In this document: positions 261 through 445 of the stretch, one piece after another
Layout: each line of letters starts with the position of its first letter
How positions within the stretch are numbered: position 1 is the stretch's first letter
Assembly (NCBI RefSeq): GCF_003334255.1
Contig: NZ_QOWU01000130.1
Reading direction: 5' to 3' (one strand)
DNA from: Escherichia coli
GTDB lineage: Bacteria > Pseudomonadota > Gammaproteobacteria > Enterobacterales > Enterobacteriaceae
DNA: 2,825 bases
Program-made: the position numbers and the translations under genes
The notes under the pieces: model-generated
The model's input: only the letters and a program-made list of their open reading frames with translations
Told to the model about the DNA's origin: nothing
Databases searched by the model: none

Positions 261-365
261 CTCAGACGCGCTCAGACGCGTTCTAACGTGATTTTTGCAG
301 GCAGGCAAGGTTTTGTTCGTTTTTTCGCGTTTGATGCGTTCAGGGGCGTTTTAAGCGCGTTTCTG
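261..365. repeat. Direct-repeat module A (~105 bp), diverged copy of 2614-2718
   Basis: Core 267-295 matches 2622-2650 at 28/29; core 346-363 (GCGTTTTAAGCGCGTTTC) matches 2699-2716 at 18/18; the intervening sequence aligns with mismatches and a 2-bp indel. Starts with a tandem CTCAGACGCG x2 (261-280). Confidence 0.8.
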
Positions 366-409
366 TCGCATCCCGGCGCTAATACCATCCCCATGGTTAA
401 TGGGAGCTT

Positions 410-445
410 CAGAAACGCGCAGATGTCGTTTTAACGTGTCCCGGG
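410..445. repeat. Partial third copy of the repeat module (CAGAAACGCGC ... CGTTTTAACGTG ... CCCGGG)
   Basis: Shares AGAAACGCGC (411-420) and CGTTTTAACG (427-436) with modules A and B in the same order and orientation. Confidence 0.5.

Follow-up and report, generated by a model that had tools for sequence, protein, structure and literature searches.

Introduction

Small plasmids that carry only an origin of transfer (oriT) are abundant in Escherichia coli, and for Gram-negative hosts it is poorly defined how such plasmids return to duplex form once they have been transferred or have replicated by rolling circle. Among the closest described systems are single-strand initiation sites (ssi) and single-strand origins (sso). 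Here we describe an array of hairpin units in a 2,825-nucleotide stretch of E. coli DNA (contig NZ_QOWU01000130.1; "the window" refers to this whole stretch), which holds a small rolling-circle plasmid with two oriT copies, and compare the array with such elements.

To our knowledge, pKYM is the only Gram-negative plasmid for which an sso has been determined, reportedly by Kodaira et al. in 1995 (BBA 1260:183). The pKYM origin lies upstream of repK, and on the map of pBR322 the ColE1 ssiB site is located beside bom/oriT on the nicked strand. Rolling-circle plasmids of the pBuzz kind, with two oriTs, are reportedly treated by Moran and Hall in 2019 (Plasmid 101:10). Lagging-strand origins depend on the host and are independent of the replication protein, Rep (PMC5714925). 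The ssiB site of ColE1/pBR322 is a second, leading-strand primosome assembly site further downstream of the origin (PMC3167613), and the RepK binding site of pKYM falls within a 173-bp origin (PMC4439123). Two inverse oriTs on rolling-circle plasmids are known from pBuzz, as cited in two later papers (PMC7448864, PMC8765060).

The reading of the array that we favor, at a probability of roughly 35%, is that it provides host-recognized hairpin signals on single-stranded plasmid DNA, similar to ssi and sso elements and independent of Rep. We found no description of this module in a literature search for its motif strings, which gave unrelated primer matches only and did not extend to the primary papers on pBuzz and pKYM.

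Anatomy of the hairpin array

Positions 1-77 of the window are repeated exactly at 2749-2825 in a self-comparison (a 77-bp terminal redundancy). The window is therefore a circular molecule of 2748 bp written past its start, and because the molecule is circular the two sides of the junction are contiguous. An initial annotation, made from the letters of the sequence, reported five same-orientation sites and two diverged direct-repeat modules of about 105 bp that flank the plasmid junction, and interpreted them as an iteron- or operator-like array. The sites and modules are present. CGTTYTAA(N0-1)CG occurs five times, always on the + strand (279-288, 347-357, 427-436, 2634-2643, and 2700-2710, the last of which had been placed at 2699-2710), vs 0.06 expected, and none of 200 shuffles reached five. 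Modules A and B are about 80-82% identical (266-363 vs 2621-2716), with sub-matches of 82% (266-325 vs 2621-2680) and 85% (330-363 vs 2683-2716). A partial third copy occupies 410-438 (427-438 vs 279-290, 92%; 398-421 vs 2639-2662, 79%). The word AGAAACGCGC, which had been assigned to each module, is present in module A only as its reverse complement (355-364), and the + strand copy there is degenerate (CAGACGCGC, 263-271). Two degenerate sites, listed in Table 1 as the tails of HP2 and HP3, had been missed. The array is thus a non-random set of repeated cis elements in non-coding DNA, and it is conserved in homologues.

The repeated element is larger than the sites. We read the five sites and both modules as parts of one tandem array of five hairpin units that runs from 2571 across the junction to 436 (Table 1). 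The 9-mer GAAACRCGC is enriched, with 16 matches (at most one mismatch) against an expectation of 2.8, and its orientation alternates between 2574 and 420. Every leftward copy forms an inverted repeat with the rightward copy that follows it. Each unit consists of the inverted repeat TGAGCGCGTTTCYGG-N16-50-CCRGAAACGCGCTCA, followed 6-7 nt further on by the tail TTnTA[A/G]CG. The stems are G+C-rich and 12-16 bp long, the loops vary between 16 and 50 nt, and the conserved 3' tail is unpaired, strand-specific, and at a fixed distance from the stem. The units in the window are spaced by 120-150 nt.

The five sites are of three non-equivalent kinds, which we call E1 (279, 2634), E2 (347, 2700), and E3 (427). 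E1-type sites lie 3' of a hairpin arm and E2-type sites abut the 5' side of one. Three of the five (279, 427, 2634) are tails, and the two others abut the 5' side of a left arm. A "105-bp module" comprises one right arm plus tail, the central segment, and the left arm that follows, and the "partial third copy" is HP5.

Four of the five units fold as single-stranded DNA (z = -2.2 to -3.8), and the whole unit A has z = -3.5. HP3 differs from HP1 by a compensatory change of C:G to T:A (GCGTG/CACGC vs GCGCG/CGCGC). HP2 has two C:A mismatches on the + strand, which are G:T pairs on the - strand. Extensive conserved intrastrand structure in non-coding DNA, as is typical of sso and ssi elements, is therefore found throughout the array, with the exception of HP2 on the + strand.

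Table 1. Coordinates of the hairpin array and of the other annotated features (circular numbering in brackets where a feature passes the junction)
Feature	Position	Strand	Description
rep	1575-2573	+	Sole long open reading frame; 332 amino acids; Rep_1 (PF01446) rolling-circle initiator, E = 9e-86
HP1	2571-2629	+	Left arm TGAGCGCGTTTC (2571-2582), its first three bases the rep stop codon TGA; right arm GAAACGCGCTCA (2618-2629); loop 35 nt; perfect 12-nt inverted repeat; z = -2.7
Module B	2616-2719	+	E1 (right arm and tail), central segment, E2 (CTCAGAAGCGTTTTAAGCGCGTTTC); direct repeat of 261-365
E1-type tail core	2634-2643	+	CGTTCTAACG; 7 nt 3' of the GAAACGCGC core in the HP1 right arm
Terminator-like hairpin and T-run	2654-2685	+	AAACGAG...CTCGTTTTTTGTTTT; center of module B, about 80 nt past the rep stop; putative, read from the sequence
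E2-type site	2700-2710	+	CGTTTTAAGCG; abuts the HP2 left arm; usually CGTTTTGAGCG in homologues, hence not a dyad
HP2	2706-2772 (2706-24, spans the junction)	+	Left arm AAGCGCGTTTCCGG (2706-2719); right arm CCAGAAACACGC (2761-2772 = 13-24); degenerate tail ATGTTTAGCGCGG (2778-2790 = 30-42)
HP3	76-152	+	Arms GAGCGTGTTTCT (76-87) and AGAAACACGCTC (125-136); tail CGTTGCTTAACAC (140-152); perfect 12-nt inverted repeat; z = -3.8
HP4	201-288	+	Arms TGAGCGCATTTGAGGG (201-216) and CCCTCAGACGCGCTCA (259-274); 16-nt inverted repeat, 88% complementary; tail core CGTTCTAACG (279-288); z = -2.2
Module A	261-365	+	E1, central segment, E2; E2-type site 347-357 inside
HP5	353-436	+	Left arm AAGCGCGTTTCTG (353-365); right arm CAGAAACGCGC (410-420); mini-palindrome ACCATCCCCATGGT in the loop (384-397); E3-type tail core CGTTTTAACG (427-436); z = -3.4
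oriT mimic 1	449-532	+	IncI/B/O (NikA/NikB, MOBP) type; nick motif ACATCCTG|TCCCG at 520-532
oriT mimic 2	915-1022	-	Inverted relative to mimic 1, with which it shares inverted repeats; nick motif at 915-927, - strand

Conservation and covariation of the units

We compared 19 distinct homologous units that differ by about 30% overall. The arms are nearly invariant and TTnTAACG is invariant, while the loops and the central segment vary. In the E2:E3 helix 81.5% of cells are paired, and two positions changed in a compensatory way (T:A to C:G and C:G to T:A). In the 5 nt distal to the conserved cores, complementarity is 69 vs 56 +/- 4.2 in shuffled partners (p ~0.002).

This set does not bear out the idea that the sites are dyads bound by a dimeric protein. 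A perfect 4+4 CGTT/AACG dyad is found in 8 of the 19 E1 sites, in none of the E2 sites, and in 3 of the E3 sites, and the invariant part is the asymmetric TTnTAACG. The operator-like interpretation is not supported either, with sites that are the tails of larger inverted repeats. Because the arm spacing ranges over 16-50 nt and the distal stem bases covary, intrastrand pairing fits better than a duplex operator of fixed geometry.

The array could still be bound as duplex by a host protein, as in the gyrase site of pSC101 par or in bacterial interspersed mosaic elements (BIME) and repetitive extragenic palindromes (REP), with an effect on supercoiling, stability, or copy number. The 12-nt arm and TTnTAACG are strongly conserved in primary sequence, which would agree with this, as would the alternating orientation, the enrichment of the 9-mer, and the independence of the array from replicon type. 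Stem covariation is not expected under duplex recognition, however, and the variable arm spacing, the unconserved core dyad, and the dispensability of the array in relatives make such sites quite improbable. We recognized no match to the consensus of an E. coli regulator known to us in the array. Of the proposal that the sites form a host-factor or copy-control array, one part survives: a ligand, if there is one, would more likely be a host factor than a plasmid-specific protein. The duplex form of the sites is disfavored by the spacing and the covariation.

Among all fetched loci, non-Watson-Crick transitions in the stems comprise 31 A:C vs 7 G:T pairs on the module strand; read on the complementary strand, most of them are G:T. 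The A:C excess comes mainly from ColE1-type carriers, many cases share ancestry, and a replication-strand mutation bias predicts the same pattern. The asymmetry therefore does not assign the folding strand, as selection for folding of the opposite strand is not separable from such a bias.

Position of the array and a possible role on single-stranded DNA

The array is located on the G+T-rich, rep-carrying strand, between rep and the double-strand origin (dso). Third codon positions of rep have a strong G+T excess on the rep-sense strand (G 35% vs C 18%, T 30% vs A 17%) and the GC skew of the whole plasmid is +0.10; the G+T excess is consistent with the rep-sense strand being the one that is exposed as single strand. 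The block CCTTGTATTTATACT at 1314-1328 is invariant upstream of rep where the Reps are 45-100% identical, and is probably the nick region of the dso. We used it in place of the canonical pC194 nick CTTGATA, which is absent, and took the nicked strand of the dso provisionally from the G+T skew.

On its other side the array is followed by oriT mimic 1, always about 108 nt past the last hairpin arm. Matches to the oriT sequence occur in 125 conjugative and 215 mobilizable plasmids. In an IncF/MOBP plasmid, the matching segment is directly upstream of nikA-relaxase genes that are transcribed away from it, and for this reason we take + as the nicked strand of oriT mimic 1, with the module at the 3' end of the transferred strand. 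We rejected the module as a native part of the IncI/B/O oriT: homology to conjugative plasmids begins at 457 (GGGTGTCGGGGC), and nikA takes the place of the module there.

A role on single-stranded DNA is suggested by the conserved stems with variable loops, the strand-specific tails at a fixed distance, the position between rep and dso on the G+T-rich strand, and the location 5' of the oriT nick. We predict that the array would act in cis while the plasmid is single-stranded, which would happen when the + strand is displaced by Rep in rolling-circle replication and when a strand that was nicked at the neighboring oriT mimics enters a recipient. The stems would remain duplex in DNA coated with single-stranded DNA-binding protein (SSB), and the host priming machinery (primosome, primase, or RNA polymerase) would recognize a stem with its tail and start synthesis of the complementary strand. 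We also count in favor of this role that a plasmid of 1858 bp (L011), which consists only of rep, the dso region, and the module and lacks the inter-oriT region, keeps the module, that the module was retained on capture by ColE1-type plasmids, and that it is intact in Yersinia pestis pPCP1. The compensatory stem changes and the folding of four units speak for it too, as do the Rep-independence of lagging-strand origins and the corresponding place of ColE1 ssiB, beside bom/oriT.

Several results weigh against such a role. In 47 of 47 loci the module has the same orientation after rep, and it stands before oriT at about 108 nt, but this is inherited synteny among loci selected for the motif, and the orientation argument rests on it. 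A remnant with E1 only is inverted relative to RNAI and the mob genes. ColE1-type carriers gained the module and the oriTs as one block, and hitch-hiking could account for its presence in these plasmids. No match to the array (639 nt) was found by blastn in 50,697 phage records, G4, phiX174, and Ff among them, and none to the window in Rfam on both strands at E <= 1. Plasmid matches are confined to this small-plasmid family, with no similarity to characterized ssi or sso; homology to the described classes (ssoA/T/U/W, phiX174-type primosome assembly sites, G4-type) was not found. HP2 does not fold on the + strand (z = -0.1). The stem covariation is modest, because the arms hardly vary, and none is significant in the E1:E2 helix, the E2 internal palindrome, the central hairpin, or ACCATCCCCATGGT. 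A stronger structure is predicted at 1040-1200, just upstream of the dso nick block, which is the classical position of an sso, and it is kept in all Rep_1 relatives examined, including those that lack the module. Finally, two pBuzz-like plasmids (L078 and L079; Rep 72% identical, same nick block) are without any unit, and their rep stop leads straight into oriT.

The region 1040-1200 contains the hairpins 1051-1114 and 1124-1186, with a single-stranded DNA folding energy of -40.8 kcal/mol (z = -5.2). This region may be the primary sso or an origin enhancer like that of pKYM.

A function in RNA, as a 3' flank of rep, would explain the start of the array. Under this alternative, HP1 and the central T-run hairpin would terminate and stabilize rep messenger RNA and shield oriT and the dso from read-through, and any further units would be duplicates. 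The stop codon of rep forms the start of the first left arm in every Rep-bearing relative, which includes two clades whose Reps are only 45% identical (L011 in one of them), and in 47 of 47 fetched loci with a Rep C-terminus or remnant E1 comes next, in the same orientation, 48-64 nt past the last sense codon (225 nt in one ColE1-type group). On the rep strand, the central segment is shaped like an intrinsic terminator in module B, L003, L011, and L013, and in these three homologues the hairpin is stronger than in module B (AAACGGGCAAGGATTTGCCCGTTTTTTT); in module A it is degenerate. It is not conserved in ColE1-type units and does not covary significantly, however, and the whole of unit A, HP3, HP4, and HP5 lies beyond the terminator. 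Arms and tails are still conserved where rep is a remnant of 37-76 amino acids. Consensus scans of the array hit only two weak 5-bp stems, at 277-290 and 346-358, and neither a promoter-like site nor, in the Sigma-70 scan, a promoter was found in the window. A role of this kind is unlikely.

Distribution and exchange between plasmids

We found the module in 136 PLSDB records and 57 metagenome contigs. In E. coli it occurs at 72 places in 49 of 5426 complete genomes, always on plasmids and never on a chromosome, and we accordingly rejected a dispersed element of the type of miniature inverted-repeat transposable elements (MITE) or REP. A search of one genome each of 100,044 species gave four contigs, two of them from Y. 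pestis, one with the pPCP1 unit sequence, and one with a truncated variant that has E1 only. The carriers are two Rep_1 clades with Reps about 45% identical (L011, L013), ColE1-type plasmids, a RepL plasmid, and pPCP1.

Sites for Rep itself, for Rep titration or copy control, are very doubtful on this distribution. In favor of such sites, Rep_1 plasmids are the native setting of the module, rep always precedes it, and there is a weak resemblance to the arm at 1307-1315 (GCGCGTTCC), adjoining the conserved nick block. That resemblance is a 9-mer with one mismatch; chance alone predicts 2.8 of these, and relatives do not conserve it (GCGCGATCC in L011, a deletion in L013). Identical arms stand beside Reps that are 45% identical and in plasmids without Rep, L078 and L079 have no such sites, and the RepK site of pKYM is inside the origin, as noted in the Introduction. 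We consider Rep iterons unlikely.

In ColE1-type carriers a C-terminal Rep remnant of 37-76 amino acids is directly upstream of the module and two inverted oriTs are downstream. The whole segment was therefore captured from rolling-circle plasmids, at least twice. Remnants of the Rep_1 C-terminus (amino acids 296-332 or 257-332) are located in RNAI plasmids at 5670-5780 of L007, 5733-5945 of L008, and 3166-3276 of L006. Large IncF plasmids have the module-oriT segment inside integrated ColE1 replicons. In pPCP1 (L004) an intact two-hairpin unit lies between IS100 and rop at 2267-2502, with a stem base changed in a compensatory way to CCGG/CCGG; the core of the adjacent oriT is deleted and its flanks are kept.

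The truncated variant (two hairpins, E1 only) is found in the colicin-type ColE1 plasmids L027, L031, L036, and L049 (for example at 5322-5950 of L031). The mbeA mobilization operon precedes it, and a perfect cer core (GGTGCGTACAATTAAGGGATTATGGTAAAT) follows at a distance of about 310 nt. With respect to RNAI, the variant points the opposite way from the unit in pPCP1. An Rfam match to the small RNA sR084 is about 500 nt away from it (6439-6516 of L031). ColE1-type carriers have a separate perfect cer core, 0.3-1 kb from the module. In the window itself the XerC/XerD core (GGTGCGTACAA-N6-8-TTATGGTAAAT) is absent, and we rejected a cer-type function in multimer resolution.

It is possible, and we suggest it tentatively, that a portable hairpin-tail element of single-stranded DNA gives "hitch-hiker" plasmids, which lack a relaxase and a primase, a host-recognized start of the complementary strand after rolling-circle replication or mobilization. 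As part of the same tentative proposal, the module may have arisen behind rep in enterobacterial Rep_1 rolling-circle plasmids and then moved with the oriT mimics into ColE1-type and RepL plasmids and pPCP1, and with two inverted oriTs it could serve either strand. If so, the module with its oriT mimics in three replicon types, including the plague plasmid pPCP1, would be a defined and easily testable candidate for the start of the complementary strand. The module would, in addition, help to trace exchange between rolling-circle plasmids and those of the ColE1 type.

Variation in unit number

The number of units varies among near-identical plasmids: the window has five, whereas pPM18 and L003 have fewer. 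The plasmid pPM18 corresponds to the window with one repeat interval removed, the crossover falling inside CGTTCTAACGTGATTTT, and the crossover of L003 is inside the right arm CCAGAAAC. Further tandem duplications are found in L007, L008, L010, and L014. Because a close relative with one unit (pPM18) and more distant ones with none (L078, L079) exist as complete plasmids, the array is not an essential component of the origin; it is dispensable and variable in copy number.

Repeats with no function of their own, selfish or neutral, which are multiplied and reshuffled by recombination between the arms and carried with a selected rep-oriT segment, would behave in this way. Crossovers inside the repeats, recurrent duplications, the viability of relatives without units, and the joint entry of module, rep remnant, and oriTs into ColE1-type carriers as one block all agree with such repeats. 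Yet the arms and tails are invariant despite strong divergence of the loops and of Rep (45% identity), the distal stems covary, and the module is intact in pPCP1 despite the loss of the oriT core. The lack of chromosomal copies in the 5426 E. coli genomes is also unlike a spreading MITE or REP. We regard inert repeats as somewhat unlikely. Even if inert, the module explains the size variants of this plasmid family through recombination between its repeats.

Other features of the plasmid

By its sequence, the plasmid is a Rep_1 rolling-circle plasmid of the Col(MP18)/pPM18 kind with two inverted IncI/B/O-type oriT mimics. Near-identical E. coli plasmids have 2738-2744 bp and are typed as Col(MP18), and pPM18 (NC_013652) has 2330 bp and is 94% identical to the window. 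A poly-G tract at 69-76 (= 2817-2824) varies in length among plasmids and metagenome contigs that are otherwise near-identical, where the complementary strand has 7-10 C. These length differences, which may stem from true slippage or from an error of sequencing, are part of the 2738-2748-bp size spread.

Conserved copies of the motif ACCACCT(G)/CAGGTG surround the dso and the promoter region of rep (1166-1173, 1477-1483, 1515-1520), and the motif is present in both oriT copies (480-487, 966-971). These repeats are better candidates for binding Rep or another protein than the five sites of the initial annotation. In L011 the two oriT copies are collapsed to a short perfect hairpin, GGGTGTCAGGGC-TGC-GCCCCGACACCC.

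Two other candidates for the repeats were rejected. A Tus Ter site is suggested by GTTGTAAC in some homologues, but its central G is variable (C/G/T) and the flanks differ. The resemblances of TCAGACGCGCTCAG and TAACGTGATTTT to parts of the terminal inverted repeat of the Tn3 family are not collinear by inspection, and the GGGG...TAAG frame is absent.

Comparison with known systems

Iterons of theta plasmids are regularly spaced direct repeats, each about 17-22 bp long. The cognate Rep binds them, and their sequences co-vary with this protein. The array resembles them in having repeated short non-coding sequences near a rep gene. Its repeats alternate in orientation and are irregularly spaced, whereas iterons are tandem, regular, and in one orientation, and its arms are identical across very different Reps and present without a Rep, so that specificity for a cognate Rep is not seen. 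The initial annotation did not expect iterons in rolling-circle plasmids of this family.

BIME/REP elements and pSC101 par are likewise cis elements that encode no protein and act through host factors, with alternating palindromes at the 3' ends of genes. REP sequences are tight chromosomal palindromes with short loops, whereas the units here have loops of 16-50 nt, are restricted to plasmids, and are dissimilar in sequence.

The pBuzz-type plasmids share with the window a small Rep_1 replicon, the nick block CCTTGTATTTATACT, two inverted mimics of conjugative-plasmid oriTs, and mobilization by a relaxase in trans. They differ in the hairpin module, which the pBuzz-like L078 and L079 lack.

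The described ssi and sso elements (phiX174, G4, ColE1 ssiA/ssiB) differ from the module, which is an array of 2-5 similar hairpins with large loops rather than one compound structure, has no homology to them, and is dispensable in relatives. The likeness is in the kind of element. Both are non-coding and cis-acting, combine hairpins with conserved unpaired bases, and depend on the host and not on Rep, as we propose for the module. The module also lies between rep and the dso on the strand predicted to be displaced and directly 5' of the oriT nick.

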